From positions 773,386 to 837,385 of the forward strand of contig CAJINV010000016.1 of assembly GCA_905178155.1 (NCBI GenBank): a stretch of 64,000 bases of DNA. The letters run 5' to 3'. Each line of letters starts with the position of its first letter. Within the stretch, counting starts at the first letter, position 1. Position numbers and translations under genes: made by a program. Origin of the DNA: Amoebophrya sp. A120 (Eukaryota > Protista > Dinoflagellata). Under the pieces are notes generated by a model. It had not been told where the DNA came from, ran no database searches, and was given only the letters and a program-made list of their open reading frames with translations. This document shows, piece after piece, positions 1-64,000 of this stretch.

Positions 1-3000
1 GTGCACAACGCTGCTCCCTCGTCCCGCTCGTTTGTCATGCAAAATCCACCAACGTCCACAGTAAGTTGAAGTTCATCTTGCCTTCACGGACTGTCTGCGG
101 GACAGGTTCATGAACTCTCGAAATCGTGTCCTCTTCTCACTCCGGTGCGGTCGTGCAGATTTGTCATGCAGACGAGGCTCTCTGGCGGGACGTCCTGCCC
201 GTAGATCATGCGGACGAGACCGCATGACATTCACCTTGACCGATGCTTGTGTTGCTGCTGATGCCCACCTTCAAATGGGGGGGAGTGGGGACGAGGTCGT
301 GCACTCTCATACGCAAGCCGTGCCAGCTACGAAGGGGGAGCAGCCTCAATAAACATGGATGTGGAGGGTGTCACGCGGGCGTCGGGGAACGAAGGCAGGC
401 TGGGCGCGGCGGCTTCTTTTTCTCTCGACGAGGATATGAACTGCAAAAGTATCGTACTCGTATACATGCATTGCAAATTTCCTCACCATGAGAAATGAAA
501 TCTGTCATGCTGCTTTACCCGAAGAAAAAGATTTGTAATGCAAGACTTGCAATACGAGTACGATACTTATACTTTTGCAGTGGATAGAGGAGGCAAGTAA
601 AAACGGCAGGGAGAAACTGCAGCTGCTATGATCCACAGGAATTTTTTTCCCGTAGTACACGAGGACGTACAATTACAAATGCGATTACTGCATGACAAAC
701 CTTCTCGCCGATGATCCTATTCAGCATGACAAGTGGCAGGATCTGAGTTGACAAAATTTGTGAAGCATGGTTTTGTACGTGTGCTGCGGGAAAAAATGAC
801 TTGTATTGCATAGCTGCCTTGGGTGCTCAAGATGTTGGTCCGGCGTCGTGCCTATCAAATGCAAATATGTGGTCTGGGTCCTCATCTTCTTCCCTGCGTA
901 CTAGTTGTACAAAGGTCGTTTTCTACTTCCCTTTGCTGTACTGAGGTCTTGTTTATTATGTATTCCAGACAAAGAAAAGCAAAACACCAGACATATTTGC
1001 AGTTGATAGTGCCTCGTCCGAGGACGTTCTTGGGCAGCGTCGTAGCCACCAACCTGCGGAAGTCCCGGAGGGGGCAGATGAATCTGTCCTGAACAAAAGC
1101 AAAGCCGCCGAAGCGCGTCGCGGGCGCGCAGAAGAGCAAACGGAGGTTGCTGAACTGTTGCGTGTATCAAATGTAAAAATGTCTGGGTCTGGAAAGTTGT
1201 GGTGCATGTCACTGAATAATAAGGACACTGTAATGCGCCGCCAAGCATGACAAGTTTTTTCATGCTTCTGTGTTGCGTATTCCGCATGAGAAACTGCGTG
1301 TTTGCATGACAGGCTAAGTAGAGGAGCTCTTGCTTGCCACGCAATACAGATCCCAGAGTCGTGTCAGACTAGCATGACAAATCTCGCAATCTCCCAGACC
1401 CAGACATTTTTACAATGTATAGCGTGCCGAGCGGTTTCTGACGGAGGTCGAATCTCTCACCAAGGAGTATGACCCGCTCAGACGTTACAATCTCAACTGT
1501 TACAAATACAATAGAATCTGGAAATCTGTGATGCAAGAACTGCATGATCTAGCCTACTCCCATAGGATTGCGCATGACAAGTTTCGGAGTCCCAAACCCA
1601 CCTCAAATCCGGCATAATTTGTATTTCGAAGCGCTCAATTCTCTCTGCGTTCCTCATGCTCTGTATGCAATACAATTACAAATTCCAGACTCTATTGTAA
1701 CGTTTGAGATTGTAACGTTTGAGCAGGCCATAAGGAGGAAGGCCAGCACCTCGCCCGGCCGCGGAGCCGCCCGGGTCCCTCGGCGTACGAGCAACAGTAC
1801 TTCATTCCTTTGTATAATAAGTGGACCTCTTCCATCAACAGTGCGGCCACGTCGTCGCGCGACGCAGCTAGCGGCGCTTTTCCGCCGTCGCACGGCGCTT
1901 CCTTATCAAATGTAAAAATGTCTGGGTCTGGAAGATTGCCAGGTTTGTCATGCATATTTTGAATGACCCATGATGTCTGTGATGCATGCCCTAGCATTAC
2001 AGATTTTTGGAACAATTTGCGATGCCTCTACCGCATGAGAAATGCCCTCTCCGCGTAGCTCAAACTGGAGTCCTCTTGCTGGTCATGCAATACAAATTTT
2101 TTTCGAATCCAGAGACAGCATTACAAGTTTAGAATCTTCCAGACCCAGACATTTTTACAATCCATATTCCTGCGACGCGAAACAAACGCAGCACAGCAAA
2201 CGGCTGCCCATCACTACCCATGAGTATCCTGAGTAAAAACGTACCCACACCAGAGTCAGGATGGGGATTTTGCAACACAAACCTACGAGCTTTGTGAGTC
2301 ACGCATGACAAGTTGCGCTATGCGGTGTAGTGCAGGTTAGCAAGTGCAGCCGCATCACAGATTCATCTGCTCATCCTGTTCGCAGCATCACAAAATCCAA
2401 AACACGATTGGAAATGGCTCTCATGGGGATGCGCATTACAAGTCTTCCTGTCTTTGCAAATCTGCATTACAACTCTGGTGTGGGTACGTTTTTACTCAGG
2501 ATAATGAGAAAAACTGTGTTAGTCTAGGTGTTTTATTGGGGTAAGAGCAGGACAACCTACTTCCCCTGCATAACACAGATATCCTGTCATTCACAGCTTC
2601 TACGTGAAAACACATAGGATTTCACAGTGGCTTCGGCTGGCTGGCATAGCAAGGAAGTGTAACTGTGTTGCATGCTATTTACATTTCACACAGTTCTTTT
2701 CTTGCATAATCACCGACAAACCCGTCCCCGCCAGCGTATACGCTGTTCAGCAGCAGCAGTATCTTCTGTGGCAGCAGCAAGAGCAACAGTTTTACTCGCA
2801 GCACACTGCAGCAGGAACTAGTAGTGCCAGCACTGGAGTTATGCAAAGACAAAAAGTGTTACACTTACAGTTAAGTACACACTTTGTTGCAAAACGTCAG
2901 ACAAACTTTGTCATGCGCAAAATGCTTACGAGACTTTATTTTCCATGTGTGATGGGCCTTATCATCCCCGTATTGCAACAAACTTTCTCTCTCATGCAAC

Positions 3001-6000
3001 GCAAGTTTATAATGCTGAAGCTGAACTCACTACAACGAATGTGTTGTAAAAACTGGAAGGAAACACTTTATTTTTCCTTGGATATTAGGAGTCGAGCTAC
3101 CGTACCACAGAACATCTAGTCGCGGACCAAGCGCCGGCGCTACAACCTCCAACGGCGCAGCTGCACTCGGCTTCGACATTGATATGACCTCCAGGAGCGC
3201 AGGAGCCGGAGCCCCAGGTGCAGGAGCCACTGCGAACAGCTCGGAGTTGGATAGAACTGCGACTGCTGGTGGTGGTCCCACATCAACATCTTCAACTCGA
3301 GGAAATTGTACCGACACGATGTTTGTCGCCGGGGGCCCCGCTGCTCCACATCTCGGCTATAATAATCACACCGCTTCCAGTACAAGTACTTCGCTAGTAA
3401 ACGACGGCAACCTTTACCACCGGGAAGCGGGTGGTGCAGGAGCACCTGTTTCGTCGAGCACCAATGGCCCGCAGCTACATGTACATCAACACCAGCACCG
3501 GCCCTGCGACATGGTAGATGTCAGTGACCCGATGACTTCCACGCAAGGCGTTCTTTTTGATCACGTTTCTACCTGTTCCGTTGTTGCACCACATCAAGAA
3601 TTACTCGCCCCGCACCATCACCCCTACAATACGGCTTCGACTGGTGGAGGCCGCGAGCGCGACTTTTTTGGAACAAATCTCCACCCCGCGCGGGGACGCA
3701 CCGCTGGTTCTGCGTTTGGCAATATGAACAATCATGTCGCATCTATAATTCCAGCACCAGCAGGAGCCGACTACTACACAAGAAGTTCTTGCTCTGTGGT
3801 ACACCCGAGTGCGGGCGGGACTAGTGCTGCTACTGCAACGACATCAGCAGCTTCGGCTGGTAATGCAGCGTTTCTTGGCCGCTCGTCCTCTGGCGCGGCG
3901 TACAAATACAACAATTACCCCAATCACCTGCAACCGCCGCCGCGATCATTATGAGAGTGCACAACCCCTCCTCCTCCTGATTTGTCGCGCAAGAGACCAA
4001 ATATTTTTCCAGGCTGTGGTGCCTCTTAGCACTGTGTGCATGACAAGTTCTGGCAAAATCCCAAATAGCATTACTACACTCCACGTGTGGAGATTTGTCA
4101 TGCAAAACCGGCATTGCTGCTGACGCTTGTAGTGCCGTTCATGCTATACATAGTACAAATGAGGGGAAGGGGGGGCTGTCCACTCGCATAGCGATCCGGG
4201 CGCGCCGCCGGGGACCTTCTGCGAGACCACCCATCTTCGAATCCGGCCATGGACTGGTTTTACCATCGGATTGAGGTTCTCGGCAATATGGATCGCAAAT
4301 ATGTCTGGTTCTGGAAGAATGTTGGCCGTGTTTGTCATGCATCTTTTGGATTCTGCAAATGGTCTGCCATGCACTTAAAAGCATGCCAGCTTTTGCGCAG
4401 GCCTTCTGATGCCTATCCTGCATGAAAAAATCGCGGCTTGCGTAGCAAGAAATGGGCAGGCCTTTTGGCGCTCATGCAATACAAATTTTTGTCTATTCCA
4501 TAATCCGCATCACAAGTTGCAATCTTCCAGACCCAGACATATTTGCAGCTGATAGGCAATGAGCAGCTGCAAAACTGGGATCAGGGATTCGACATCATGG
4601 AGCTCGAGCTTGAGGTTTTGAAGAAACAGAAACGAAAAGCGAGCAGTAAAGACGCAATCTCGTCGTGTGGTCCTCCTGCTGCGGAAAAAGATGACAAATC
4701 TTCTATTACAGCGACCGATGGTGCGATGACTCGGATCCATCCGTCCGCTGGCGAGGAGATGAACAAACCGCTCCAAAGTCGACGCAACGGCGAGGATGAA
4801 CTGCAAACAGGTCCTACTAGTTGTACCTCCGGAGCAAGTTCTTGCGCGGTGGAAGTAGATCAAGCTGCGAACAAAACTACTTCTACGGGGAATGCAGCTT
4901 CTACTGCGCAAAATCATTCCACCACGACCGGGTGTTCAACAACGTCCTCCTCCTCGGCGTCGTGCAGTACGGCCGGTTGTCAAACCAAGCCCACGTCTTC
5001 CACCACCACCACCACCACGACTAAAGCGGAGTTTTTATCCTGAGTAAAAATAATGTCCCCACCCCAGAGTCAAGATGGGGACTTGGACTTCGCAACACAA
5101 ACCTAGAAGCTTTGGGACTCGCGCATCACAACTTTCAGTCCGTAGCGTAGTGCAGGTTAGCAAGGACAAACGCATCACAATTCCATCTGCTTATCCTGGT
5201 TACAACATTACAAATTTTTCAAAAACACAACTAGAAATGCCTCTCATGGAGATGCGCATTACAAATGTTCTTGCTCTTGCAAATCTGCATGACAACTCTG
5301 GGAGGGGGACGCTTTTACAAATGATAGTTTTTCAAGCTCCTGCCTTTCTTGCACCGGCGGACGGAGCAGTGCGGTTTCGAGGCGCTGGACCGGTACGAGG
5401 GTAATCCGAAGCTATCGAAATGGAAAATCCCCCCTCCCCACATCAAAACGAAATTTCTGATGCCGGATTTGCGTACACAAATCAGATTTGTCTTGCAGTA
5501 GGGGACTGCAGGCCCATATCATGCCAATGTAGAGAGGTTTTCGCCTAGGCAAGTAGGATGAGGAACGTCTATGCTGTAGGCCTAATAGCATTACAAACCG
5601 CCTGCATAATGGGGTGGGGCCTATGCCGTTGCTTTCTTGCAAGACAGATTTGTGGTCACAAACACAAATCAGCATCACAAATTCTCTAAGGCGTGCCTTT
5701 TCGATTATATGGGGACGAGGGAGCATTTTTCCTCACGATAGACGCTGCAGCAGATTCGGCAGACCTACCGCATCAAGAACATTGGGGTGAACCCGCACTT
5801 TGCCCACCTGTTTCGCGATTTGGGTCTGGTAGACAACCATACCAAATGTAAAAATGTCTGGATCTGGAAACTTGTGATGCTGGGTGGCGTCTCATGGTGA
5901 GGCCACAATTGCTGGCTCAGCATGACAAGTTTCTGAGCTTCTAGGTGTTGCCTATTCTGCATGACAAACTGCGTTTCTGCATCACAGAAAAATGGAGCTC

Positions 6001-8762
6001 TTGGGTAACGTGCATGACAGATTTAAGAGTCATGCCAGACAAGCATGACAAACATACACTCTTCCAGACCCAGACATAATTTTTACAGTTGATAAGCCAG
6101 CAGATCAAGCAATTCGTCAAGAAATTCGTCAAGGATCCCGGTTTATGCATTGCAAAAGTATCGTACTAGTATAAATTGCATTACAAATTAGCCCAGCATT
6201 ACAAATTGAATTTGTATTGCTGATTTGCCTTGAGAAAGAAATTTGTAATGCATAAATGCAATTACAACTACGAGTGCGATACTTTTGCACAGGATACGGG
6301 TCCGTATGATGTGCAAATATAATGTCGGAGTCTGGAAGACTGCAAGACTTGTAATGCTCCGCTGACAGGAGAGAAAGATGTGTCATGCATGTTGCGCTAC
6401 CAGGCGAATTCTTTGTTATGCAAAAACGTAATTCCAATTTCTCATGCAGTGTACGCAAGACCTAGCCGATCAGAAACTTGTCAAGCGCGTCCCCATATTG
6501 GAGGTTGCTTTATGATTCGCAAACTGGCATCACAACTTTCCAGCCATTATATTTGCAATGCATAGTCCGGACTGATTCTGCGGAACCAGACGCGAATCTG
6601 CACGAGGGCGCAGCTGCTCCAGGCGGTCACGGGCCAGCGTTATCCTGTGCAAAAGTATCGTACTCGTATTGTAATCATGCATTACAAATCCTGTTCTTAA
6701 GGCAAACTAGCATTACAAATTTTATTTCTCATCGTGCTGAGGGAATTTGTCATGCATTTATACGAGTACGATACTTTTGCAGTTCATAAGCGCGCAACCA
6801 TGACAAATGGGGAGGAATTCGCTGGAAAGGTACGCGACATTGTATTGAGTTTACCGATGCTTGAGCCAAGAATAGGTGTCACTGCGGGGGTGTACGAAGC
6901 CCATTTTTGCTTTCGTAACGACCCTGAAGTTTTTTTTTCATCTGTGAAGTCATCTCTCCATCCCTGGCGAGCAGTTGCATTTCTTGGTTTGTGTGCTAGA
7001 CCACGCAAGTAACGAAAGCTCACTGTCACACCAAAACCACGTCAGGTTCGCATTCTCTTGTCCGTCTACGGGAGTTTTGCTCTTTATCTTGGCAAAATCT
7101 TTTCAGAAAACAATTGTGTAGAAGTTGAGTAGAAGTACATAAGTGCGTATCATTCATTGCGGACCCACTTTTTACTCCCGGCAAACCTTTGGAAATTCAA
7201 GACTTGTCATTTGACTGAAGATCATGCAAGAAGCACTTGTTTCTTGCACGTTGGTGGTTCACCATGGAGGATGACGATGAGGAATTGTATCTGGAAAAGA
7301 TTTTGCCAGGTGCATAGTTCGAAACACTTACCGCAAAAGTGGAACAAATTTTTCGGCAGCTGCAGTAGTAGTGATAGCTCCTCCACCTGTGCAGCAGCAG
7401 CAGCTTCTGCAGCTTCACCGGCCACCAGACCAGGAGCTCCTACGACAGATGTTGTTTCTGAGTCCTTTTCTGCCACCAGCACAGCTTCGTACGCCGAGGC
7501 GTTGCGACAGGTGATGGCAGAGAACGAAGAAAATGGAGGATCTTCTTCTTCTTCGTCTTCTTCTAGTCAGGATGTCGACGAACAAGTTGTGGACCAAAAG
7601 AGCAAGCTGCAGCTGCCAGTACACAACGGGATCACGACGAGTAAGAACAAAGGCGACGAAAAACAAGATCTCCTCACGAGCGGCGCAAATGAAGATACGA
7701 CTAAGTTCAACAACAAAGATGACAGCACGACGAAACAAGTTCTTTGTGCAGACCGCGACGAGTGGCAGTTTGTGAAGGCGCTGCTGGAAAAGGAGCTGCG
7801 GGGGGTGGTGAGCTAAGCAGTGCAAAAATACTTAATTGTGGGGTCGTACAACTGCTATTGCTATTGCATTAATATACAAATTTTGTCAGAAGTAGCTCTA
7901 GATGGGAACAAGATCGAGTGTGTCATGCAGATGTAGGTGAGATAGAATTAGAAAGAGATGAAACACATTCATTCTTTCACACAAACGCAATTTAGCAACT
8001 ACTAGTGCGGTCGTTGCGATACTTTTGCACAGGATACGAGGTTTATTTCCAGGCACCCGGCGTCGGGGAGTTTTGCAGATGGCAGTTCGGGTGCGGCTCG
8101 TGGGATGAAAAGGAAGACGCAGGAGAGAGTTCTTGCGGAAGAAGATGTTGCGGAAAAGGAAGACGCAAAAAGTAAACACGACGCGGGACGAAGCAAAACA
8201 CAAGTAGAAGAACATGTGAGGACCATCAACAACTCAGCAGAGGTGGTTGAGATACAGGAGCTACTTCTCGAGGAGACTGGTGCGAATAGCGTTTCAGCGG
8301 ACGCCGTATCGAATGCAAAAATGTCTGGGTCTGGAACGTAGCAATCTGCGATGCTGCCTTTGGATTCTACATCAAATCTGTATTGCATGAACAGCAAAAG
8401 AGGTCCTTTTTTTGCTACGCGGAGGGGGCATTTCTCATGCGGTATGGGCATTAGAAAGTCGTCACAAATAAATCTGTGACGCTAGGGCATGCATCACAGA
8501 CATCATCGGTCATGCAAAATGTGCATGACATTCTTCCGGACCCAGACATACTAATTTGCAATGCATACGCTGTCACGCCAGACGAAATCGAGCTGGGAAA
8601 AGAACTGCCGTGGGCAGACGAGGTATTGCAATGGTTAGAGAAGAATTAATGACGATAAAGTCCAAAGAGTACAACTTCTATTCATTTTCGTATCTGTGTT
8701 GTCTGAGCACGCAGGTAAGTAACTGCAAGAATGAATTTTTAAGCGTGCAACGAAGCTCGTGA
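1..8762 (+). CDS. Large multi-exon protein of unknown function (5'-partial), interrupted by 18 TIR introners and a few GT-AG introns
   Basis: Removing each TAT...ATA element plus one DR joins exons in frame: ...SLDEEASKNGREKLQLPWVLKMLVRRRASSED...AERFLTEVESLTKE...DWFYHRIEVLGNEQLQ...AEFFKLLPFLHRR...KFVKDPGSGLILRNQ...ELGKELPWADE. No recognisable domain; exon structure at 6830-7160 and the 3' end are uncertain. Confidence 0.7.
435..586. mobile_element. Introner family C (TIR core GCAAAAGTATCGTACTCGT)
   Basis: TAT...ATA, DR gagga/gagga. Confidence 0.85.
627..812. mobile_element. Introner, singleton TIR
   Basis: TAT...ATA, DR gctgc/gctgc, imperfect TIR ttttttcccgtagtacac/gtgtgctgcgggaaaaaa. Confidence 0.75.
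853..1008. mobile_element. Introner family A (TIR core AAAATGTCTGGGTCTGGAA), short
   Basis: DR gtgcc/gtgcc. Confidence 0.8.
1165..1421. mobile_element. Introner family A
   Basis: DR gcgtg/gcgtg. Confidence 0.9.
1468..1732. mobile_element. Introner family D (TIR TATGACCyGCTCArACGTTACAATCTCAA)
   Basis: DR aggag/aggag. Confidence 0.9.
1904..2166. mobile_element. Introner family A
   Basis: DR ttcct/ttcct. Confidence 0.9.
2225..2503. mobile_element. Introner family B (TIR TATCCTGAGTAAAAACGTACCCACACCAGAGT)
   Basis: Perfect 32-bp TIR, DR atgag/atgag; near-identical to 12131-12409. Confidence 0.92.
2840..3087. mobile_element. Degenerate introner, singleton
   Basis: DR ggagt/ggagt, right end gata-tta; removal joins ORFs in frame. 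Confidence 0.65.
3950..4190. mobile_element. Introner family E (TIR TATGArAGTGCACAACyCC)
   Basis: TAT...ATA; DR gcgat offset by 3 nt on the left. Confidence 0.75.
4287..4554. mobile_element. Introner family A
   Basis: DR ggcaa/ggcaa. Confidence 0.9.
5036..5326. mobile_element. Introner family B
   Basis: DR gtttt/gtttt. Confidence 0.85.
5413..5740. mobile_element. Introner family F (TIR core GGAAAAATCCCCCTCCC)
   Basis: DR gaagc/gacgc. Confidence 0.8.
5840..6094. mobile_element. Introner family A (TAC start)
   Basis: DR aacca/agcca; paralog of 12458 and 43522. Confidence 0.88.
6144..6296. mobile_element. Introner family C
   Basis: DR cggtt/cgggt. Confidence 0.85.
6305..6564. mobile_element. 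Introner family A, diverged
   Basis: DR gtccg/gtccg. Confidence 0.8.
6641..6788. mobile_element. Introner family C
   Basis: DR agcgt/agcgc. Confidence 0.88.
7814..8036. mobile_element. Degenerate introner family C
   Basis: Left end taagcagtgcaaaa, right end gatacttttgcacaggata, DR tgagc/cgagg; removal joins ORF 7157 to ORF 8105 in frame. Confidence 0.65.
8307..8567. mobile_element. Introner family A (reverse orientation relative to 1904)
   Basis: DR cgccg/cgctg. Confidence 0.85.
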
Positions 8763-10470
8763 ACACGGGGAAGTGTATGATCAAGATCGGTATCAGGATA
8801 GGCAGGACGTTATCAAATTTATCAGAATCAATCAAACTAGTTGTAAAAATTTATGCTCGAGGTCTCTGTACGTCTATGTGTACTCGTCACGGGCCTGCAC
8901 AGTTCCTCCTGACAGCATCCACAGTCAAATGAACTACAACTTTTTCAGTTATATCAGAAAACGACAAGTGTACCTACGGTATGAGAAGTGAATAACTATT
9001 GGACCACGAGAAAGCACGCGCGAGGTCAACAAATAGCATTTTATTATTTTATCCTCCACCTCCGAAGGCGGCGATCCGAATCCGATCAGTCTGATGTCTG
9101 TGTTGAGCTTGATGCACAAATGATGGAATGGATCGAGGACGAGGTGTAGTACTACTTACTTAGTTTCATCGGAGCCCACGTCTCATCTGATCGGCGGTGT
9201 CTTCTTCAAAAATTCCGCCGCACCTAGTATTGCAGTCTCTTTGATGTTGAACTATTTATCTTGAAGCTTGTGCTGAATTCAAGTCAGTGTCGAATTGCGA
9301 TGTGTGAAATGAACTTGTACTTTTGATGGCTATTAGTTTCTGTGGCATTGTTGATGATCAATCAAGTGGTGCTGCTTTGTGGTCCAACGATCTGGAAGAT
9401 AAATTGGCAGAAATGTATACCTGTCTGTCAACCAGTGTCGATGTCGTCACACCAGCACAGGAGAGCCCCTCTGCCTGTTGTTGTTCCGAGGTGAACAGTT
9501 TTAGGCGCAATTTACTTGGGCGGGGACCAAAACTGCCACCGCTGGGAATACGAGAGGTCTAGGGTGGTAGTCGAGAAAACGTTTTTATGTGAAAAACAGG
9601 CGACGACGTGGACATTCAAGCCGCACAATGAACCGATCGGGCATGATTTCCGAAAAAGGGTTTCTTTCAATTTCGTTTTCTCTGATTTTTTTCCGTTTTT
9701 CGCCCCTGTACTTGTTTTGTGTTTCGTCTTTTTGGAGGTTTCGTTTTCCTGCTGAGGTTGCATTGTTTCGTCCGTGCCGAGGGTGGTGCTGATACGAAAA
9801 GGATCAGTATCTTGCGGCCTTGACATCAAAACTTCCATCTCCAATTGAGGATCAACATATTCAGCTTTTTCCGAGAAGTTCGCTATATATGATGTTCAGG
9901 ACGATTTCTTTGGGACGGCCCTTTGAAAGCGACGTTTTCTTGTCGTCTTGAGAATGAAACGCACGCATTTTTTAGTGCGATCTTTAGGTGGTGGCCCGTA
10001 GTTGTTACATGTAGGGACTAGACCATCAACATCAACTTGAACATGTTCTGCACCACCAAGCCGGTCTGGTTACTCTAGGACGGCGGCATGTGTCGTATGC
10101 TAACTGTAAGAAGCTGATTTTTTATGTATGAGTTCTTACATTGGCTTTACTTGTTTGATCCCGCCACAATTTTCTTGAAATTGAATGTCAAGATGAAGTT
10201 TGCGTTGTGAGTTCATCCGGGCGGAAGAGGTATTAAGGGTCAGAGAAACTACTGTGCCCACTTCTCGTGGCTCGTCTTCCTCTTCGCGTCGCCGCAACAT
10301 TTCTGCGTGCAAGGAGCAGCGGGATCGAGTGGAGGGAAGTACTGCATCCTCGCAATTTATTATACGGAAAAACCGAAAGTAGAGTGTCCAGCTCCAGCAC
10401 GACGCGGACGCTGTTCAAGAACCACCGTGCAGCTCGTCTTGAGGCAGCTACTGGCTACTAGCAGTGCAAA

Positions 10471-13400
10471 ATGAGCATGCGAGGCAAAGCAGTTTCGTCC
10501 TCCAGTGGGGCAACCTCCGGGGGGTCTCCTGGCAGCCCTAACGCCTCGGCAAGGCAACGAGGGTCGAAGGAGCTTGACGAGACCAGTACCAGCCCGACAA
10601 ATCGCGGGTCCACAAATGGCGCAGCGCGAACAAGCAAAGAGATCGTCGCGCCAGCATCTTTATCAAATGCAGATATGTCTGGGTCTGGAAGAGTCATGCT
10701 GCTTTTGCATGACAAAGAAGGTCTGGCATGGGAGCTCTAGCATCACAGGTTTCGAGAAGCTTCCGCTATGCCGAATCCGCATGGCAAATGCCCCATTTGG
10801 GTGACAGAAAGTGGGCAGCTTTTGCTGCCTGCGCATGAGAGATTTTTATGCGTTGTGAAATGCGCATCACAACCACAAGTTTGCATTCTTCCAGACCCAG
10901 ACATATTTGCATTTGATAATCTTCTAGCGCGGTTTCCTATGCGGTATCAAGCGGGACATGATGGAAAACAGTGGCGTTTTTATTTGGTTTCACTTCAGTA
11001 CTTTGTCGCGTTCGTCGCAACAATAATTTATAACTTTCTGCCGCCCACTCAGTGTCAGTATCATTCAGCTTTCGAAAGTTTGCAGAGGCTCAAAAGACTT
11101 GGATTATAGGTAAATCCATCCTAGCTCCTATGCGCTGGCGCCCCACAAGCTGCATGTGAAAACGCTTGGTTTCACGACGTCATGATGTCCGTTCCATACC
11201 CTACGACGATATTCTACATGAGCCTGAACTTTGCGGTCTCGGTGCTGATTGTATCAAATGTAAAAATGTCTGGGTCTGGAAGAATGCGCGATTTGTCATG
11301 CAGCTTTTCCATGACCCATGAAGTGTGGAATGCAGGACCTAGCATGACAGATTCTGTGCGATCTCTCTCATGCCCATCCTGCATGAGAAACTCCCTCCCG
11401 ACTTGGTCAAAACTGGACGACTTTTGGTAATCACGCAACACAGATTTTTGCATGTTTCAGATTTAGCATGACAAGCTGCATTCTTCCAGACCCAGACATT
11501 TTTACAGTCGATAGATTGTGTGGGTAAACAAATTCGCCTTCCAGCAGGGGTTCCGTATCAAGATGAAATTTGTGCTGATCCGGGATCTTGTGAAAAATGT
11601 GGTGATCTTGGTGATGCTCTTACTTATTTTCGTCAGCATGGTGAAGAGGTAAAGTAGATAACAGAAGATAAGACGGAAAGATGACAGAGGATAAGACGCC
11701 GCACGCACACTGGATCAGGATATTGCCCATTTGTTTCATACGCCGATGGAACATTTCCCTGACGACACTACATTTCCTGTTCACCTACATTGGCTTGGAA
11801 ATAAGCGCCAGGTTTTCATTTTTGGTCTTTGTTTTTTGATATGGGAAGAAAAGACTTTATGCTTAGTAGCTATGTCATGCGTTCGATGCGCTCCACCAAA
11901 ACCAGTGCCAGCGAGCGACGACTAGTTTACTGTGGACTGAAGAACTTCTTGATCGTCAACAGCACGTCCTCGCGCGGCGAATTTATTTGTTTTTCTGCAT
12001 AAGGAGAAACAAACTCTTTTTCTTTTAGGTTCTTCAACCTGTTTGAGCCCGTGAAGATCCCGGCCCGGAAAGTCGCCCCGATGTGCGCCGCCTTTTGCGG
12101 CTTTGTGGTGTTTAACAACCTTTCTCTGCATATCCTGAGTAAAAACGTACCCACACCAGAGTCAGGATGGGGATTTTGCAACACAAACCTAGGAGTTTTG
12201 TGAGTCACGCACGACAAGTTGCACTATGCAGTGTAGTGCAGGTTAGCAAGTGCAGCCGCATCGCAGATTCATCTGCTCATCCTGTTGACAGCATCACAAA
12301 TTCCAAAAAACGACTGGAAATGGCTCTCATGGGGATGCGCATTACAAGTCTTCCTGTCTTTGCAAATCTGCATTACAACTCTGGCGTGGGTACGTTTTTA
12401 CTCAGGATACTGCAGTACAACCCGGTCGGCGTGTACCAATTGTTGAAAGTGTTAACCTACCAAATGTAAAAATGTCTGGGTCTGGAAACTTGTGATGCTG
12501 GGCGGCGTCTCATGATAAGGCAACAGATTTCGGCTCAGCATGACAAGTTCCTGAGCTCCTAGGTGTTGCCTATTCTGCATGACAAACTGCGCTTCTGCAT
12601 CACAGAAAAGCGAAGTTCTTGGGTAACGTGCATGACAGATTTAAGAGTCATGCCAGACAAGCATGACAAACATGAACTCTTCCAGGCCCAGACATTTTTG
12701 CATTTGATATAACCACACCTGTCATCGTCGTTCTACAGAAAGCCACGCTTCCGACGAGCCAGATGCTGGCGCTGATCCCCACCTGCGTGGGCGTCGTACT
12801 GGCCACGGTGACGCACTTGGACGCCAACCTGCTGGGCGGCATCTTCGGCACCCTGGGCATACTCAGCACCTCCTTCTACCAAATCTGGGTCAAGTCAGAA
12901 CAGGTATAGAGTATTGCCATCGATGAATGATGTTGTGCGCTGCCCATGAGAAATTTAAATTTTTGCAAGCCAGCTGCTGCTCGACCAGCAGCTGCAGGGT
13001 TACATTTCATCTACCGTCAGAAGAAAAATTCGAAACCTGTCAGGACGCCCTGAAAGTGAGCGCTCCGCAGCTCCTCTACAACCAGAGCTTTTGGAGTTTC
13101 TGGGCGCTTCTTCTCTTATCTCCTTTCGTCGAAGAGGTTTTTCATGATACGGGAAGGAAAATTGACTTCTGTAGAAAAGAACTGCAGAACAAGAAAATGA
13201 AGTACACTGACTCCACGTGGTTGTAACTAAACACGGTTTCGTTGCTCTGGGATTTTTGCCACGACTCCCACATGTTGCAGTTCTCAGTCTGCATTTTTTT
13301 TCATTGATCTCTGCATTCATACATGGAGTAAGTGGTCGTGCTAGCTTTGGATGCTGCAGGTGCGGAGTCGGTGGCAAAACAAAGAAGCGTACCGCAACAG

Positions 13401-51826: not shown

Positions 51827-52142
51827 TATTGTGAGGAAAAATCCCCCCTCCCCATATCGAAACGGAAATTTGTGATGCTGATTTGTGACCACAAAGAAAT
51901 CAGGTTTGTCTTGCGTACAAGGCAAACGGCACCCATGTGGCGCAGTGTTAGCCCAGTCTGTCATGCGTTTTCGCCTACGCCAGACTTGTTTCTCATGCGC
52001 AGCTGCTAGCCGGATGCGTACCCAAATGGGCTTAGAGTATGCCGACAAGCTCTTGCTGCAATACAAAACTCATTTGTGTACACAAATCCAGCAACACAAA
52101 TCGGCTTTTGAGTATGGGGTGGGGGCTTTTTTCACTTTGATA
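51827..52142. mobile_element. Introner family F outside any recognised gene
   Basis: DR acaca/acaca. Confidence 0.85.
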
Positions 52143-52959: not shown

Positions 52960-53029
52960 CATCACGCGCAACCTTAGTTAGCGTAGTAGCGGCGCATCAC
53001 GCGCAACCTTAGCTAGTGTAGTAGCCGCG
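52960..53029. repeat. 35-bp tandem duplication
   Basis: catcacgcgcaaccttagytagygtagtagcsgcg x2. Confidence 0.85.
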
Positions 53030-54586
53030 GAAGCAAAAATACGAATCATCGCGTTGCGTGTTGTGCCCGCTAAAGATAGGTGGTTGTCAAATACTACTTC
53101 GCGTAGAAGTTGACCCATTGAATATGTCTAGCGTGGGCGCAACACGGCACGATGACGTGATTTTGGAGTAATTTTGTTCTGAACTTGGTGAAACTGATGA
53201 ACTGACAAACTAAACCTGATAAAAACAACTACAGAGCGTTATTTTTTTTCGATGCAGTGAGAAGAGCATCCAACATTTGATAGATACTTTTATTGTGAAC
53301 AAAATCAACAGACCAAGACTGCCCTTTAAGACAAAACCAGCTCGAAGGACTGTAGTGAATGTTTTATCCTTACGGGCTTTTCCTTTTCCATTCCTAGTAC
53401 CAGAACCCCCGCCCCGGATTTCAATCCTCTTTCTATGCTTCTCCCCTAGCTGCCCTTTGAGACCTGATTGGTGGCACTATTCAACTCTTCTGGTTTATTC
53501 CACAAAGTTTTTTTTTCCTATTTTCTGCCGTAAATAGTACACCCACCTAGTCCGTCGAAGCATCTACGTGCAGCAAGTATCTATTTGCAGCACCTTAAGA
53601 TCTGTAGAAGTAAGTACTTCTTCTTTATCTATCCGCGCGTCTTTCATTAACGATCGTCTTTGTGTCGATTTTCATTTTTTTTTTTGGCGTGAAGCCAAGT
53701 CGGTGTCGGGCATCAAGAAAGCTCCAACGCCTATCCGAAGCTAGCAGCGCATGAAATCACTAAAAATTTAAACTCTTAAATAAACCTACTGGAATAGTAA
53801 GTATCTGAATCTGTCGAATAGGAGGAGTGCCCGCAATCATACATTCCTCGACGAAATGATACAGAATTTGTCGGGAAATAAGTGATTCTGGCGGCAAGGC
53901 TGAACTATAGTGCTCGACGTAGCTGCTGGGACATAATAATTGTTCTACTCGACTTGTTGTACAGAAACCACGATGGACCTCCACATCAGCAACGGAACTC
54001 CATCTTGATCCAGGAGTCGGAGCAGGGTGGTCGTGGAGGCTCATTTTCAACATCGCGGCGCTGGAGGCAGATAACTCGCTTGCTCTATTATTTACCCTGT
54101 CGGCAGGAAGTTTTTCTTGCGCACCATCGTCGACACACCCTCCACGTGTGCCGCAAAATCCTAAACCCCCAGCCGCCTCTACAACGACGTCTTCGTGCCA
54201 CGATTTTTTTAAACTGCGACAGTCAGCAGAAGTTGAACATCGGCGACAGGCGGTGGTCGTCCCGGATCATAGTAGTACGGTGCCACTACATGATGATCTT
54301 CATGTGCAGCTAGGAACAACATCTTCCAAACCGCTTCTGCAGCACACACGAACATCTTGCCCGTCGCAGAAGCACTCCTTCTCTTCGTTGCCGGAAGCGA
54401 ACATATTGCCGGAAAAAGACACCACCAAAGTAGCACCAGCACGACTTCCAGCTAGGACCAGTAGGAGCAGTACAACAACTTCCCGTGGTGCTATAGTAGT
54501 ACAACCACCTTTCGGTAGTAAGTTTCGCGCGATCATCATACACGGCAAGCAGAACTCTTTTCGAGAACAAAACGGATCACAAGAAG

Positions 54587-57500
54587 ATGAAGCGCAACCG
54601 TTCTGTGTCCGGGGTCCCCATGATCCCGGTCCTGAACCCGCTCCACAGCTACGCCCAGCTGTTCCCCACGTTCGGCAAGGGGCTATACCGTTCCCCGAAG
54701 GATTTTCCGCAGGACTGGGAGGTTCTGAAGCAGCTCGGCACGGCGAACTTCGGCAAAGTTTTCCTCTTGCGGCACAAGCCGACGAACCAGGAGTTCGCGG
54801 TCAAGCGCATGGCGACCGACGAGAGGAACGCGGACGGACACATCAGCAGAACGGGCGTGCTGGAGCGGTACACGCAGCGGGGGGAGGGCGAGAACGCGAT
54901 CGTCGAGCTCGGCGTCTACACGTACTGCTCTTTCGGGAAGAATTTAGACAGGAAATTGAACTACCTCCGGGAAAACAAGGATTTAGAGACGCTCGGCGAG
55001 CTGAAGGGCGGCGAAAGCATGGTCCAGGACGTTTTGGATCAGACGAAAATATGCATTGCAAATTATTTGAAATTATCCAGCGATCTGGGTTTTTTTGTCA
55101 TGCAGTGAATAGCAAGATAAAAAAGATCTGTGATGCATAGAATCAAAAACATGCCAGCTTTCTTGTCATTCTGTGAACAAATAACTCAGTTTATTCCCAT
55201 GCGTTTCACGAATGAATTTGCAAGAACAAGCTGCCTGAAAAACCTGTGAAGATGCTGTGATGCCGTAGTACAAGCGTCCTCCTCTCTGCGATCTTCATGC
55301 GAGTTGTACTAACTATCACTTAGCATGATCAACTACACATAGTTTAGTATTCCAGACCCGGATCATCATGATCGATGATAACTTCTGAATGCATAGCAAA
55401 AGGACATGGCGTTGGTGCTGGTGAACCGGGGGCGGAGTGGGGGCTTCAGTGACGTCATGGGCGGCACCAACGTGAACAACTTGCATCTATCGCACGAAAA
55501 AACTGTTTCACCGTGATGATTTTGCAAGATTTGCATCACAAGTTTGTTACACATGACAAAGAAAACTTGGCATGCGTGCTTCCTAAGGGAAAACACAGCT
55601 AAAAATCCAATATCTTGCATGTGTAGCAAGACAAACACATGTGCGTTCCGTTCTATGCATCACAAGTTTACAGTGAAACAGTTTTTTCTCGTGATAGCAT
55701 CTAGACGAGGTGTACTACAGCACACCCGCAGGCGCGAAAACCTTTGCGAAGAACCTGGGGAACGATCCCAGACCGAACGGCGACAGTTTGGTCATGGGGG
55801 AGGTAAACGTGCCCTTTGTCAGCGGGGGGAGTGACGCCATCATGCGGAACAAGTTCAACGTGCCCTTCAACGAGGGGGAGCAGACGGGCGCGCCGGACTT
55901 GAGCACCAACCTCGAGAGCACCGAACTGGACGACTCCGAGTACGCGCCGCCCTACTGGATGGAACACAAACCCTGTCCGAACCTGCTGCGCATGTCGTTT
56001 TGCCTCATGGACAACGAGTACGTCTACGTGGGCACGGAAAAGTGCACCCGCGGCGAGCTGTTCGAGCTTGTCGCGGCGAAGAAGCGGCTCGGCGAGGCGC
56101 TCTGTATCACACAGAAAAAAGCAGGCAGGTCATATTTGTAATGCGAAAATAAATACACAAGAAAAGTTTGCATATCCTAAGCAGGATGCTATGAGGCCGC
56201 CCATGTCAGATTTTTCTGTGTATTTATTTTTGCATTACAAATCTGCCCTGCCTGCTTTTTTCTGTGGGATACTCTGCCGGTGTTACCTGCGGCAGGTGTG
56301 CGAGGCCGTGCTGTGGCTGCACGACCGGGGCATCTATGAACTGCAAAAGTATCGTATTCGTATAAATGCATTACAAATTTCCTCAGCGTCAGAAATAAAA
56401 TTTGTAATGCAGACTTGCCTTGGGAACATGCAAGACCTGCATTTATACGAGTGCGATACTTTTGCACAGGATAGCATCGGGCACCGGGACATCTCGCTCG
56501 AGAACATTTTGCTCACCGACGAACCCGTATGGATGTGTCAGGTTTGAAATCGTCAAAGTTGAAATAGTTTGTCATGCATAAAACGGATACCAGTTAGACC
56601 TACAGTTTGTAGTCGGCGCATGACAAATTTTCCCGGCCCTGGAAGCGAGTCTGTCATGCGGTTTAGGGCAAAAGAGCTGCCTTCTGTCATGCTAGTTAGC
56701 AGCCCAACTTTTGACCCTTGCCAGGACTATGACCTGCCTCCCGTTGGTCCGCTGCAATAGAGTCACTTTTTGCATCGCATTTTATGCATTACAAATTATT
56801 TCAACTTTGACGATTTCAAACCTGACGCTTCCATAACCCGAAGACCGGTGTATCCGGCTGATGGATTTCGGGATGTCGTGCAATCTATCAAGTGCAAAAA
56901 TGTCTGGGTCTGGAAGAATGCAAACTTGTGACGCGCATTTCGGAACACACAAAAATCTCTCATGCATAGGTAGCAAAAGCTACTCACTTTCTGTCACCAA
57001 AGTGGGGGATTTGTCATGCGGGTTCGGCATTGCGGAAGCTTCTCGAAACCTGTGATGCTAGAGCTTCCATGCCAGACCTTCTGTGTCATGCAGAAACGTC
57101 ACGACTCTTGCTCTTCGAGACACAGACACTTTTACATTTGATACAATCTGTACCGCGAGCGCACCGACGACGAGCAGGCCGCAGCGGAGGCCGCTGCGGC
57201 GGCCGGGAATAAATCCACAGCAGACGGGACCACCCGGCTGACGGAAGCCAATCACGACGCCTCCGAGCTGCAGCCGAAAGTCGCGCGGACCGCGGGGAAG
57301 GTCCGACTCTCGGAGAGCGGGCGGGAGCTAGAAGACGTGCACTACTCCTATGACTTGCTCAAACGTGACAATCTCAAACGCTACAATAGAATGTGGAGTT
57401 TGTATTGCATGATGAGCATGACAGACTCGCACAGCTTTCCACCTTTTGCAATACAAATTTCGCCAGATTATAGTGGGGTCTGGGGCTCCGGAACTTGTCA

Positions 57501-59014
57501 TGCGCAATCCTATGAGACTTGGCTAGATCATGCAATCTTGCATCACAGATTTCCATATTCTATTGTAACGTTTGCGATTGTAACACCTGAGCGGGTTATA
57601 ACTCCGGGTCCGTCGGCAAGGACTTGTACCGGCCACCGGAGTATGGATTGCAAATATGTCTGGGTCTGGAAGATTCCGAGATTTGTCATGCAGTTTTTCC
57701 AAGCTCCACCAAGGCTGGAATGCAGGGCATTGCATCACAGGTTCTGCAGCCCCTTGGTGATGCCTATTCTGCATGAGAAATCAGCGCCCTCTCAGCATGG
57801 CCAGAAATGGGGACCTTTTGCAAGTCATGCAACACAGATTTTTGTATGATGCGCAACACGCATGACAAGTTCGCATCCTTCCAGCCCCAGACATTTTTTG
57901 CAGTTGATACGGAGCTGTACCACGGCACCCAGCAGAACTTCTACAAGGTAGCCCCAGTGGACGTGTTTTGCTGCGGTGTGGTATTTATCAAATGCAAAAA
58001 TGTCTGGGTCTGGGAGATTGCGAGATTTGTCATGCTTGTCTGGCATGACTCTGAACTCTGTGTTGCATGGCCGCGAAGAGCTCCTCCTCCCTGTCATGCA
58101 AAAACGCAGTTTCTCATGCGCTCGGCTAGCTGGCCGGGCTGTACTGATCAGGTGTGGTGGGTAGCTCCCGACTGGTTGGTACTTTTCATGGGGCGACTTG
58201 CCGTGGTAGCGCTCGGCTTTTGTATGATGAGGTCGCCGAAAGTGCTTCCTCGCCCACCCCCCGGGGAGGGGATCCTTGACCTGTGGCGCTGGGAGCGGGT
58301 GTCCACTACATGATGATGATGATGATGACGCAACTCAGAGCCATGGAAAAAACTTGTCATGCTTGGCAGCGCATTATAGTGAGTTCACCATTCCCTTTTT
58401 TGCGTCACAAGTTTCCAGACCCAGACATTTTTGCATTTGATAGCAGTCTTCATGATGCTCACCGGCAAACCGTTGTGGAGGAGATATCCTAAGGAAAACC
58501 GTCCCCACGACCCCATAGTCAGGTTGGGGAATGTGCTACACAAATCCACACGCTTTGGCGGTCCCGCATGACAAGTTTTCATCTGGTGTAGCATGGTGCT
58601 GCTTAGCAGGGAGAGCCGCATCACAAAGACGCCTGCTCATCCTGTTTGCAGCATTACAAATCCCAGATCACGTCGACTGCAAATATCTCTCATGCGGATG
58701 TGCATTGCAGTTGTTTCTGTGGATGCAAATCTGCATGCCAACTCTGGGGTGGGGACGTTTTTACATAGGATAGGAGATGCACCATGAGCGACAAAGTCAC
58801 TGCTTTCCTTGCGGAGGGCGGCGCGGCGAGGTTCGACAGTAACTGGCAGCGGTTAGTCGACGGCTGGGGCTTCCGAGAACGGTTTTCCGCTGATGCGCTG
58901 GATTTGATACCAAAAATGGTGCACTTCGATCCCGGCAGAAGATGGTCGATACCGGAGATTTTGAAGCACCCCTTTTTCATAGAACCGGAAGGAGACGGAA
59001 AAACGGATCTGTGA
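54587..59014 (+). CDS. Ser/Thr protein kinase (CAMK-like, HRDISLEN type); 10 introners
   Basis: LGTANFGKV, FAVK, GELFE, IGHRDISLENILL, LMDFG, VGKDLYRPPE, DVFCCGV, DPGRRWSIPEILKHPFF, assembled in frame by element+DR removal. Confidence 0.9.
55050..55395. mobile_element. Degenerate family A-like introner
   Basis: tatgcatt...aatgcata, DR gaaaa/gcaaa; frame restored. Confidence 0.7.
55488..55696. mobile_element. Introner family H (reverse orientation relative to 22180)
   Basis: DR gcatc/gcatc. Confidence 0.9.
56105..56271. mobile_element. Introner, singleton with a long fold-back TIR
   Basis: tatcacacagaaaaaagcaggcagg...cctgcctgcttttttctgtgggata, DR ctctg/ctctg. Confidence 0.9.
56335..56473. 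mobile_element. Introner family C
   Basis: DR gcatc/gcatc; splits GI|GHRD. Confidence 0.92.
56528..56835. mobile_element. Introner, singleton (TIR core GTCAGGTTTGAAATCGTCAAAGTTGAAATA)
   Basis: DR acccg/acccg. Confidence 0.9.
56886..57143. mobile_element. Introner family A
   Basis: DR caatc/caatc. Confidence 0.88.
57349..57600. mobile_element. Introner family D
   Basis: DR actcc/actcc. Confidence 0.9.
57642..57909. mobile_element. Introner family A
   Basis: DR cggag/cggag; splits RPPE|LY. Confidence 0.9.
57986..58442. mobile_element. Introner family A with a ~207-bp nested (TGA)n-tailed insert
   Basis: DR gtatt/gcagt; frame restored. Confidence 0.85.
58485..58772. mobile_element. Introner family B
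   Basis: DR ggaga/ggaga. Confidence 0.88.
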
Positions 59015-60905
59015 GGAGGGCGGGTTCATCTGTTTTAAGTATTTATGGACCCACGTCGACGGACATCGACCCAGCAAGTCATCGACTACTTTTTTTTCAA
59101 CACGCGACTTTTACTTTAGAAAGATTCATTAGAACAACTTCAAGCTAGCCTGTGAAAAACAATACGAAGAACGCTGACGCGGGTTGTAGTTGACTGTGGA
59201 AGTACCTTTTCTGTTTCGTATGAAGCAAGAGGAACGACTACAGCGGCGAAACCGAAATCCTAGCGAGCAGCTGTGTAGTAGCTCCGAACCCGGGGTGATG
59301 TTTCAGCACCGAAGAATGTGTGGGTTGTTGTCTCACCAAGAAGACTAAACACACAACCACACAAAGACAACTTTATTCAATTTTTTAGAAGCGCGATCGT
59401 TGTCATCAACGCGATCGAGAAAGTGATCAAGCAAGTGTGTTGGAAAATAAACTCTTACCCTTATCAATCTCTCGTGTGTCGGACTGCAAATCAGTCGATG
59501 AAAATGATTTTCCGACTTAGGGCTGCGAACAGTTTCTCTTGCTCACCTTCTTTTGGAAAAATCGCAAAAATCGAAGAAGGACGGAGTGGTCTTCGGACTG
59601 TTTCAATTTTCATTTTGGGCGGTATATTAATTATAGGTACTGGCTTTTCAGGAGGAAAAGATACATACGGACGATATTGTTTTTACAGAACTTATTTCCT
59701 GGTACGTACTTCAACTTCTAGACAGATGGATAATAGCATTCGCATGTCCGAAACTTTGACAACAGGGCGGCGGGCTATTCTGTCTAAGAGAAAATCATCG
59801 ACACACACATGATATCAGGTTTTGATTGCAGCTAGGAAAAGGAATGATGGTGGCCAGATGCAGCCATACTTCGGAATAAAGCGGAGTAGCTATGACTCGA
59901 GCACTGAACATGAAGCCACAAAATTCGTAAAAAAAAGCCGCCAGTCTCTTCGGAATATCAGACACACTACTTTTCGAACAGTATTGACGTGAAATGGTGA
60001 CTTTAAGAGCTTCAATGACTGCCACAGACCAGCAAAGGTTCTTGCTCACGGATAAAACAATAAACTCTTTATAACAAAAGGGATGAACCATCATCGAGGG
60101 TATGACCAACATGGTCCTCTTCTAGAAGCGGAACATCGAAGTTAAAAATGCCCTTGCTGCATGAGAAAATTTATACCTGATTGATAATTGCTGGTAGCAT
60201 CACCAAGCGTAGAGAAGAAATAGTACTATAACCCTTCTGCGTGTGGTAGGAGAAGCTCGCGGAGGTACTGTAATTTCTTCGCAGACCGGCAGGGAAGGAA
60301 GCAATTTGTTGTTGGAACTTGCGCACGTTTTCCAACAATAAATCATTGCAGAGTTCTAGTAAAAATATCAAAAAGCGACAGCAGCAGTAGAAGTACCTCT
60401 ACCTATAATTTGCACCCAGAAGTAGAATTACAATTACGACCCTGAGCTAGGCGATCAGAAGGCCGCTCTTTCATTTTAAGAAAGCAAAATCGCTTTCGTT
60501 ACAGACGCAAATAACGCCCACGGAAAATTATGACAACTACGACACAAAAAAAGAAAAACTGTCAGTGCTTTATGGGAGAGATTGAAACCGGCGAAATCGA
60601 GAGCATGATAAGAAGTGGCACGACGTCACTTGAACGCAGCTGCTCGATTATCCGACGATTAAGTAGATAGTAATCCTACATCCCGTAATAGAAACTTTCT
60701 CTGTTTAAGTACTTTTCGGATATTTCCCTTTTCGGATACTCGCACTGCTATTGTGGATTAACTTAGAGTGGTAAAAAATTGGAGCGCAATTGTTTTTTTT
60801 TACGTCACAAGAGGAGGGTGACGTCATGGAGATTCCCCGAAGTAAATTCGAGGTTGAGTCTTCGTGTCTTTGACACTAGTTCCAATTTTGAAACTCTGTC
60901 GAGGT

Positions 60906-60934
60906 AGGATAGCACTTTAATAAAGTGCTATCCT
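60906..60934. repeat. Perfect inverted repeat, 14-bp arms
   Basis: aggatagcacttta-a-taaagtgctatcct. Confidence 0.85.
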
Positions 60935-61283: not shown

Positions 61284-61329
61284 TAATCGGAATAGCAGCA
61301 AAATCGTAATCGGAATAGCAGCAAAATCG
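61284..61329. repeat. 23-bp tandem duplication
   Basis: taatcggaatagcagcaaaatcg x2. Confidence 0.9.
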
Positions 61330-63691: not shown

Positions 63692-64000
63692 ATGCCCTCC
63701 ATTAACAGTCTGCTTCTGATCGCGCCGCCAGGTGGTGGCAAGGGAACGGTGACGAAACTTTTGCTGAACCGGTGTAAATATGCATAATGCAAAAGTAACG
63801 TACTAGTATAAATTGCATTACAAATTTTGGCAAGAAAAAAAATGGAATTTGTAATGCTGTTTTACCTTAGGAGGAAGATTTGTCATGCGTATTTGCAAGT
63901 AGTACGAGTACGATACTTTTGCACAGCATAGTAAAGCGCTTTTCTCCCAGTACCCGCAGCAGCATTTTTCCATGGGGGATGTGTTGCGGAAAAATTTGGA
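63692..64000 (+). CDS. adk: Adenylate kinase, 3'-partial
   Basis: MPSINSLLLIAPPGGGKGTVTK...RCK|ALFSQYPQQHFSMGDVLRKNL (P-loop and HxSxGDxLR), joined across one introner. Confidence 0.8.
63779..63930. mobile_element. Introner family C
   Basis: DR gtaaa/gtaaa. Confidence 0.9.

Follow-up and report, generated by a model that had tools for sequence, protein, structure and literature searches.

The stretch of DNA considered here, called the window throughout, comprises 64,000 nucleotides (nt) of the dinoflagellate Amoebophrya sp. A120 (contig CAJINV010000016.1, positions 773,386 to 837,385 of the forward strand). Every host gene in it reads on the + strand, and MQO, kinase, transporter and anoctamin-like genes are among those interrupted by elements with terminal inverted repeats (TIRs) flanked by 5-bp direct repeats (DRs). 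Such elements were already described, with their TAT start and DRs, as introners of A120 by Farhat et al. 2021 (PMC7789003). Their introner repeats begin with TAT, 7 nt and an A run, have 3- to 5-nt DRs (a 5-bp example is given in Fig. S19) and RNA-seq support, and number 29,850 copies of ~240 nt; the window elements come from the same organism, as two of its exons matched A120 proteins at 100% identity, and show the same TAT-N7-A run, DRs and non-GT-AG removal. The border of these introns is described there as variable or unknown, with no signature in the first or last two nucleotides, and the removal of this majority non-GT-AG intron class of Amoebophrya is stated to be open both there and in a 2024 review. 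The elements, TAT start, DRs and RNA-seq support are thus known; what is new here is a single junction register.

The initial annotation, made from the sequence alone, had placed about 61 elements between 435 and 63930, and our scan (TAT, TAC or TAA to ATA with a flanking 5-nt repeat and inverted arms, followed by manual reading, with ATA or GTA required at the 3' end) catalogued 61 in that interval; 2215-2708 and 43785-43981 were added later for a final count of 63. The ends were as predicted, at a frequency far above that in shuffled sequence. Among the first 61 elements, 58 start with TAT, 2 with TAC and 1 with TAA (TAT in 59 of the final 63), and all 61 end in ATA, a 3' end that the scan demanded in the form of ATA or GTA. 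Identity between the two DR copies was 5/5 in 40 of these elements, 4/5 in 14, 3/5 in 3, 2/5 in 3 and 1/5 in 1. Pairs of TIRs with perfect DRs, 100 to 500 nt long, occurred 36 times in the window, whereas 20 dinucleotide shuffles gave a mean of 0.05 (maximum 1), and flank identity was 0.89 at a repeat length of 5 versus 0.22 to 0.34 at lengths 2 to 4 and 6 to 8.

The elements had been divided into eight unrelated families and nine singletons. BLAST clustering of 59 elements instead placed 48 in 9 families and left 11 singletons, and the families are less separate than was claimed: they share TAT-N7-AAA ends, with A at TIR positions 11, 12 and 13 in 45, 49 and 55 of 61 elements, and a subterminal motif, GCA[AT][GCT]ACA (GCATNACA), is present in 58 of 63. 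Given these common ends and motif, the families look like one superfamily in sequence. The motif reaches 11.3/kb in elements, as against 2.75 in GT-AG introns, 0.23 in intergenic sequence and 0 in exons, and is likely a DNA-binding site. With TIRs, a target site duplication (TSD) of fixed length, many copies and no coding capacity, the elements have the features of miniature inverted-repeat transposable elements (MITEs) and are likely non-autonomous TIR DNA transposons. We detected no cognate transposase in the long elements of the window or, with open reading frames (ORFs) judged by eye, in three ~1-kb elements among the loci listed for a second assembly; the major TIR had no matches in viral contigs, and Rfam gave none at the gathering score. 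Introners of Micromonas and Aureococcus are reportedly non-autonomous DNA transposons as well, with a TSD that makes their removal exact, but they are said to use canonical or near-canonical splice sites that they carry or co-opt from the TSD, whereas the window elements need none.

For a wider sample, the major TIR was matched to at least 131 loci in another public assembly, and a targeted scan of these loci yielded 284 elements (DR identity of at least 3/5 required), 235 with a perfect DR. Identity of these copies to window elements reaches 96%, and none of the unique sequence overlaps the window. Strand was assigned by a codon model that was correct in 57 of 59 confident window cases, as scored on the model's own training genes; 231 of the 284 received a confident strand, the other 53 were excluded from counts of terminal dinucleotides, and 51 were excluded from the count of motif sense bias. 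An end-agnostic scan over the same loci and the window found TAT…ATA in 242 of 318 perfect-DR candidates, the rest being mostly chance pairs within repeats. Orientation in genes is approximately even (34:30 in the largest subfamily).

As the initial annotation had proposed, deletion of an element with 5 nt restores the motifs WNNAGTGH in MQO, GIGHRD and RPPELY in the kinase and LSLQYN in the transporter. When GT-AG introns are deleted as well, ORFs of 1102 amino acids (aa; 352-8646), 557 aa (MQO), 561 aa (kinase) and 1114 aa (anoctamin-like) are obtained, and restored ORFs align without gaps to relatives at six conserved junctions. Public A120 proteins already lack the elements. A homolog search with MQO exon sequence gave no match.

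We compared the window with four contig sets (X3 to X6), which represent at most two samples of one study and which we took as RNA since they are without GT-AG introns. The comparison covered 2710-8800 and 39600-59100, plus a loose contig end before 2709, and provided RNA evidence for 37 of the 63 elements, the remaining 26 lying outside these stretches. The features concerned are given below, with k as the count of upstream-DR letters retained in spliced RNA; "length sum" marks elements whose removal follows from contig-length sums.

2215-2708: outer element, TAC start, DR 5/5, second element nested in its 5' arm; not in the first scan
2225-2503: inner element within 2215-2708, DR 5/5; sequence scan
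2840-3084: decayed element, DR 2/5; RNA joint 2836>3087, k 2-4
3950-4190: element, DR 2/5; RNA joint 3947>4194, k 3-5
4287-4554: element, DR 5/5; skipped in RNA contigs
5036-5326: element, DR 5/5; skipped in RNA contigs
5413-5740: element, DR 4/5; RNA joint 5410>5744, k at least 3
5840-6094: element, TAC start, DR 4/5; RNA joint 5836>6097, k 2-5
6144-6296: element, DR 4/5; RNA joint 6142>6566, k 4-5
6301-6303, + strand: inferred 3-nt micro-exon between two elements with overlapping DRs; skip 423 = 158+265, not 426
6305-6564: element, DR 5/5; spliced, with low-depth unspliced contigs too
6641-6788: element in opposite orientation to 6144, DR 4/5 with position-5 mismatch; RNA joint 6635>6789, k 0-4
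6830-7045, + strand: host GT-AG intron (control), likewise absent from RNA-type contigs; joint 6827>7044
7085-7316: element, DR 1/5, inner stem 3 nt off register; RNA joint 7083>7321, k unambiguously 4
7814-8036: element, TAA start, DR 3/5; RNA joint 7809>8038, k 1-4
8307-8567: element, reverse orientation within its family, DR 4/5; RNA joint 8305>8572, k at least 4
40232-40477: element, DR 4/5; RNA contigs, k 3-5
40557-40678, + strand: host GT-AG intron (control), in DNA-type contig, absent from RNA-type contigs
41613-41787: decayed element, DR 5/5; length sum
41914-42720: element with nested insert, 807 nt; length sum
42787-43110: element, DR 5/5; length sum
43206-43467: element, DR 5/5; length sum
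43522-43770: element, DR 4/5; length sum
43785-43981: decayed element, DR 4/5, not in the first scan; length sum
44381-44567: element, DR 4/5; RNA contigs, k 3-5
44878-45142: element, DR 5/5; length sum
45192-45443: element, DR 5/5; length sum
45539-45749: decayed element, DR 2/5; RNA contigs, k 4-5
48797-49071: element, DR 4/5; RNA contig piece begins at 49076 (read by hand), k at least 4
51827-52142: element not within a long ORF; RNA contig piece stops at its DR
55050-55395: kinase-gene element, DR 4/5; RNA contigs, k 2-5; unbroken in DNA contig
55488-55696: kinase-gene element; length sum
56105-56271: kinase-gene element; length sum
56335-56473: kinase-gene element at GI|GHRD; length sum
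56528-56835: kinase-gene element; length sum
56886-57143: kinase-gene element; length sum
57349-57600: kinase-gene element; length sum
57642-57909: kinase-gene element at RPPE|LY; length sum
57986-58442: element with internal insert, DR 3/5; public protein compatible only with k of 4 or 5
58485-58772: kinase-gene element; length sum

The X3 to X6 contigs lacked both the GT-AG introns and all 37 elements compared. All 12 elements in 2710-8800 were skipped in the four sets, each skip equal to the element plus 5 nt (10 single joints and one double). In 39600-59100, all seven contig-length sums were base-exact and covered 21 elements and 2 GT-AG introns, with an RNA contig edge at the DR for the other 2 of the 23 elements. 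A length check was possible for 35 of the 37, and all fit the element plus 5 nt, which supports precise removal from RNA under one rule as predicted. Elements were removed in both orientations (6144 and 6641; 8307 is reversed within its family), and from the RNA edge at 51827-52142 removal seems not to be limited to coding sequence. The loose contig end before 2709 maps to 2180-2209, giving a skip of 499, again element length (L) plus 5, for 2215-2708 if the two pieces are adjacent. The inner element 2225-2503 sits 10 nt into the 5' arm of that outer element, and both are missing from RNA contigs; the pair is twintron-like and may need inside-out removal.

A further contig set, X1, had a depth of 42 to 53 in bins free of high-copy elements, including stretches without X3 and X5 depth. 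X1 contigs at a depth of 38 to 45 continue from exon sequence into elements. A GT-AG intron is also covered through its length, and contig 52115-55522 contains the entire element 55050. Because X1 contigs retain both the elements and the GT-AG intron, we consider X1 to be DNA that keeps the elements. This bears on the idea that elements leave the DNA of certain nuclei or at a certain stage, as ciliate internal eliminated sequences (IESs) do or by precise transposon excision, so that transcripts come from cleared templates. The pointers of IESs do resemble DR-bounded, TA-type ends, and X1 joints were examined in 15 of 1372 rows, which leaves room for rare empty sites. However, an IES is missing from somatic DNA, whereas the majority contigs of X1 keep the elements; the RNA-type contigs include unspliced ones of low depth at 6305 and 7814; and a single register that is asymmetric relative to transcription is expected of an RNA event. 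We therefore judge DNA excision very unlikely.

Perfect DRs leave the position of the cut ambiguous, so that elements with decayed DRs were needed to place it. Fourteen such elements were informative, and k = 4 alone is compatible with all of them: a k of at most 4 is set by 2840, 6641, 7085 and 7814, and a k of at least 4 by 6144, 7085, 8307, 45539 and 48797. The chance of a common k of 4 is 5e-5 under uniform k from 0 to 5, and that of any common k is 3e-4 (13 elements). The intron is thus N-TAT…ATA-NNNN, cut 1 base before TAT and 4 bases after ATA. The initial annotation had stated the rule as removal of an element with one DR; removal of the element plus 5 nt stands, but the cut does not fall just anywhere in the DR, since spliced RNA retains 4 nt from the upstream copy and 1 nt from the downstream one. 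Public A120 proteins agree with k = 4 at every discriminating residue, although their annotation derives from similar data and is not independent. Whereas Farhat et al. describe a variable or unknown border, the 14 informative elements of the window fit one register of -1/+4. We found this fixed register stated in none of the literature text searched, a search that left out figures, including Figs. 3 and S19 to S25 of Farhat et al., and Roy et al. 2023 (Curr Biol).

Element 7085 has a DR identity of 1/5 and an inner stem 3 nt off register, yet is cut at -1/+4. The end triplets, rather than the repeat or the inner helix, therefore appear to set the cut sites, a conclusion that leans most on this one element. 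Because the register is unchanged where DR identity falls to 1/5 and for either orientation, DR homology is unnecessary and slippage of reverse transcriptase is unlikely. A library artefact in which reverse transcriptase jumps hairpins between direct repeats, the genes not being truly spliced, has in its favor that a hairpin with a direct repeat is a recognized template-switch signature and that all RNA data are cDNA contigs. We find it scarcely credible, as removal was exact at DR identities of 1/5 and 2/5 (7085, 2840, 3950 and 45539), always L+5 and in one register; RNA depth was zero in all four runs in two 210-nt bins inside elements (3977-4187 and 5032-5242); and the restored ORFs of 557 to 1102 aa are those that align gap-free at the six conserved junctions.

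No shift of the junction gives GT-AG in any of the 61 window elements, as had been noted, and at k = 4 GT-AG occurs in 7 of 231 elements of the other assembly (GC-AG was not counted separately; +2 is always T at k = 4). By comparison with U2-type introns, the elements lack GT-AG ends but carry the +2 and +3 donor letters of host introns. At k = 4, T at +2 and A at +3 are found in 63 of 63 elements, and host GT-AG donors read GTA in 19 of 19 cases (2 with RNA joints or edges, 1 by length sum and 16 inferred from reading frames). Position +4 takes T, C or A in both classes, and elements with TAC or TAA starts (5840, 7814 and 2215) are still removed, matching the free +4 of host donors. For 7814, the sole element starting with TAA, unspliced 5'-edge contigs had a depth of 6 to 7 versus 63 to 77 for spliced contigs in two runs, a hint of ~10% retention, and the +4 base may tune removal efficiency. 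Among 13 terminal variants in the other assembly, +2 and +3 vary once versus five times at the mirror positions, a weak difference with strand inferred. This match to the host donor speaks for a modified general spliceosome no less than for a separate system. The dedicated excision system for paired TAT and ATA ends that the initial annotation envisaged is not established: the register is host-donor-like, terminal pairing was predicted in only 38 of 60 folds, and there is no G·U bias.

Published data are compatible with the same positions. In Table S4 of Farhat et al., the top non-canonical sites are NT-NN in 9 of 9 cases for A120 and TT-NN in 9 of 9 for strain A25, whose repeats start with TTA, so that both strains would present T at +2 and A at +3; the register is latent in these data. 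The same authors report U2, U4, U6 and, in A120, U5, with no U1 found (PMC7789003); strains AT5 and Kv have canonical introns, and a U1 is reported for Kv. We therefore slightly favor, with a probability of about 0.55, a reading in which A120 introners, absent from spliced RNA at a fixed register, are cut by a modified U2/U5/U6 spliceosome that lacks U1 and does not check GT or AG. Under this reading, a transposase would insert elements in either orientation, creating the 5-bp target duplication, with the GCATNACA subterminal repeats as its likely binding sites. In pre-mRNA, the inverted arms would bring the element ends close together, N-T-A would be read as a 5' splice site freed of the requirement for G at +1, with a putative end-binding factor replacing U1, and the 3' site would be fixed by its distance from ATA and not by AG. 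Fritillaria borealis likewise has MITE-derived non-GT-AG introns, removed by a spliceosome that is retained but recognizes its sites differently (PMC13326754), but it keeps U1, prefers AG-AC/AG-AT and has U2AF paralogs, whereas the A120 ends follow coding composition.

Several observations weigh against a spliceosome as the cutter or limit the data behind it. No chemistry (lariat, branch point or intermediate) is observed; contigs drop rare variants and so hide minor registers; all RNA evidence comes from a single study and from + strand genes; and a run of raw RNA reads (X9) gave only 7 reads. The NT-NN pattern of Table S4 may partly be aligner preference. If k = 4 and the GTA donor have no relation, their agreement is a one-in-six coincidence, and symmetry of the TIRs fixes TAT too. 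Neither a preference for G at +1 (85 of 291 oriented elements; coding G is 29.5%) nor AG at -2/-1 (24 of 291) was found, and the TSD letters follow host coding composition. Neither of two candidate branch points held up. An obligatory A of ATA is contradicted by variation at each letter (-7 in 3, -6 in 2 and -5 in 3 of 13 variants, read from genomic sequence of the other assembly with strand inferred and one call weak), and a two-way branch point in the UnAC-like GCATNACA motif is not supported by its distribution, sense near the 3' end in 152 versus antisense near the 5' end in 167 of 294 elements (p = 0.20). Selection for RNA pairing was likewise not detected, with G·U at 248 versus A·C at 220 across 260 elements (p = 0.21). 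A single asymmetric position (p = 0.002) among the 30 of the arm lost significance on correction and deviated in the direction opposite to wobble.

The same RNA removal and register could be produced by a spliceosome-independent endonuclease and ligase reading the TAT and ATA ends, for which the wholly free terminal dinucleotides, the lack of a branch signal and the orientation-blind removal would speak. The nonconventional introns of euglenids and hemistasiid diplonemids (PMC11282704, PMC11170887, PMC12621601) provide a parallel, such an enzyme pair having been proposed for those of euglenids; they also lack GT-AG and have paired ends at fixed offsets and TSD-like repeats, and circular products of euglenid introns are reported; their triplets are CAG at +4 to +6 and CTG at -8 to -6, whereas the window elements have TAT at +2 to +4 and ATA at -7 to -5. 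However, no such enzyme is identified, the register places T at +2 and A at +3, where host donors have them, and the differing TIR of A25 fits the same donor positions. Terminal pairing is also not predicted in several removed elements: among the 60 window elements folded (3 longer than 600 nt were left out), the 38 are those with a terminal-pair probability above 0.5, and the value was at most 0.04 in RNA-confirmed 2840, 5840, 7085 and 7814. The inner stem is out of register in 14 of 63 elements. We regard a nuclease and ligase as a tenable but less than even prospect. Whether the catalyst is a spliceosome that lacks U1 and has a novel factor to read the ends, or a novel endonuclease-ligase acting on mRNA, we think it probable that splicing ignores the terminal dinucleotides and cuts by a ruler (-1 from TAT, +4 from ATA), with a single rule, N-TA…TA-NNNN in which the +2 T faces the -5 A, for both A120 and A25.

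The remaining elements of the window are as follows.

435-586: TIR element of the ~150-nt family, DR 5/5; host ORF restored on removal
627-812: singleton TIR element, DR 5/5; sequence scan, clustering
853-1008: TIR element with major-family ends, DR 5/5; sequence scan, clustering
1165-1421: major-family TIR element, DR 5/5; sequence scan, clustering
1468-1732: TIR element, DR 5/5; sequence scan, clustering
1904-2166: major-family TIR element, DR 5/5; sequence scan, clustering
10661-10918: element, DR 5/5; sequence scan, clustering
11252-11513: element, DR 5/5; sequence scan, clustering
12131-12409: transporter-gene element, DR 5/5, 96% identical to 2225-2503; sequence
12458-12709: element, TAC start, DR 5/5; sequence scan, clustering
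13970-16687: element with nested ~2.4-kb insert, DR 4/5; sequence
20016-20297: MQO-gene element, DR 5/5; sequence
20374-20704: MQO-gene element at WNNA|GTGH, DR 5/5; sequence
20965-21226: MQO-gene element, DR 3/5; sequence
21283-21491: element at +5 of inferred GT-AG intron 21279-21680 (MQO gene); sequence
22180-22388: MQO-gene element, DR 5/5; sequence
27675-27930: element, DR 4/5; sequence scan
28299-28537: element, DR 5/5; sequence scan
29176-29567: element with internal insert, DR 5/5; sequence scan, clustering
30621-30843: element, DR 5/5; sequence scan
30895-31147: element, DR 4/5; sequence scan
31224-31445: element, DR 5/5; sequence scan
37112-37369: element, DR 4/5 with position-5 mismatch; public protein carries the residue of k at most 4
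37649-37911: element, DR 5/5; sequence scan
38496-39585: 1090-nt element with 25-nt perfect TIRs, without the subterminal motif and with no convincing ORF; sequence
63779-63930: element, DR 5/5; sequence

The insert in 13970-16687 holds a 468-aa stop-to-stop ORF (14105-15511) with no Pfam match, and 38496-39585 is possibly a deletion derivative of an autonomous family. In the MQO intron 21279-21680, a GTAT donor remains whether element 21283-21491 leaves first or not. The GCATNACA motif lies 21 to 54 nt before the 3' AG in 4 of 19 host GT-AG introns (28111, 28897, 38060 and 44100), the count being 4 sense near the 3' end versus 2 antisense near the 5' end, and old elements may be the source of some canonical introns. 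In the anoctamin-like gene, an acceptor and the start of an exon are partially duplicated in tandem (38217-38330 and 38456-39640), and the public protein uses the second copy. An intronless tubulin-family gene of 661 codons (32508-34490) has no element, unlike its neighbors, and 24651-25950 is likewise element-free. A direct repeat of ~46 nt (46143-46188 and 47990-48035) brackets 1.85 kb of GC-rich intergenic sequence, possibly a different kind of mobile element. An RNA-type contig is unbroken over ~1.9 kb ahead of the kinase start (52650-55046) and extends more than 2 kb beyond the end of the stretch compared, consistent with long untranslated regions or read-through.

The A120 families of Gozashti et al. 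2025 (PMC12130899) are likewise TIR DNA elements, mostly of 100 to 350 nt, that generate introns. Automated calls in that work give TSDs of 2 to 5 nt and mixed carried and co-opted modes of splice site acquisition per family, whereas in the window the TSD is always 5 nt long and contains both splice sites, in one register. Because the offsets of 1 and 4 equal the 5-nt target duplication, a new insertion of any sequence and in either orientation would restore the exon exactly, and this match of splice offsets to the target duplication would allow transposons to be tolerated in exons. One register turns seemingly chaotic splice sites into a single substrate geometry, and it indicates where to seek lariats or circles, which bases matter and how to re-annotate ~30,000 introns. 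If the rule is true, ruler-like cutting would make insertion in either orientation silent, and thousands of published splice sites regarded as variable would follow one rule.

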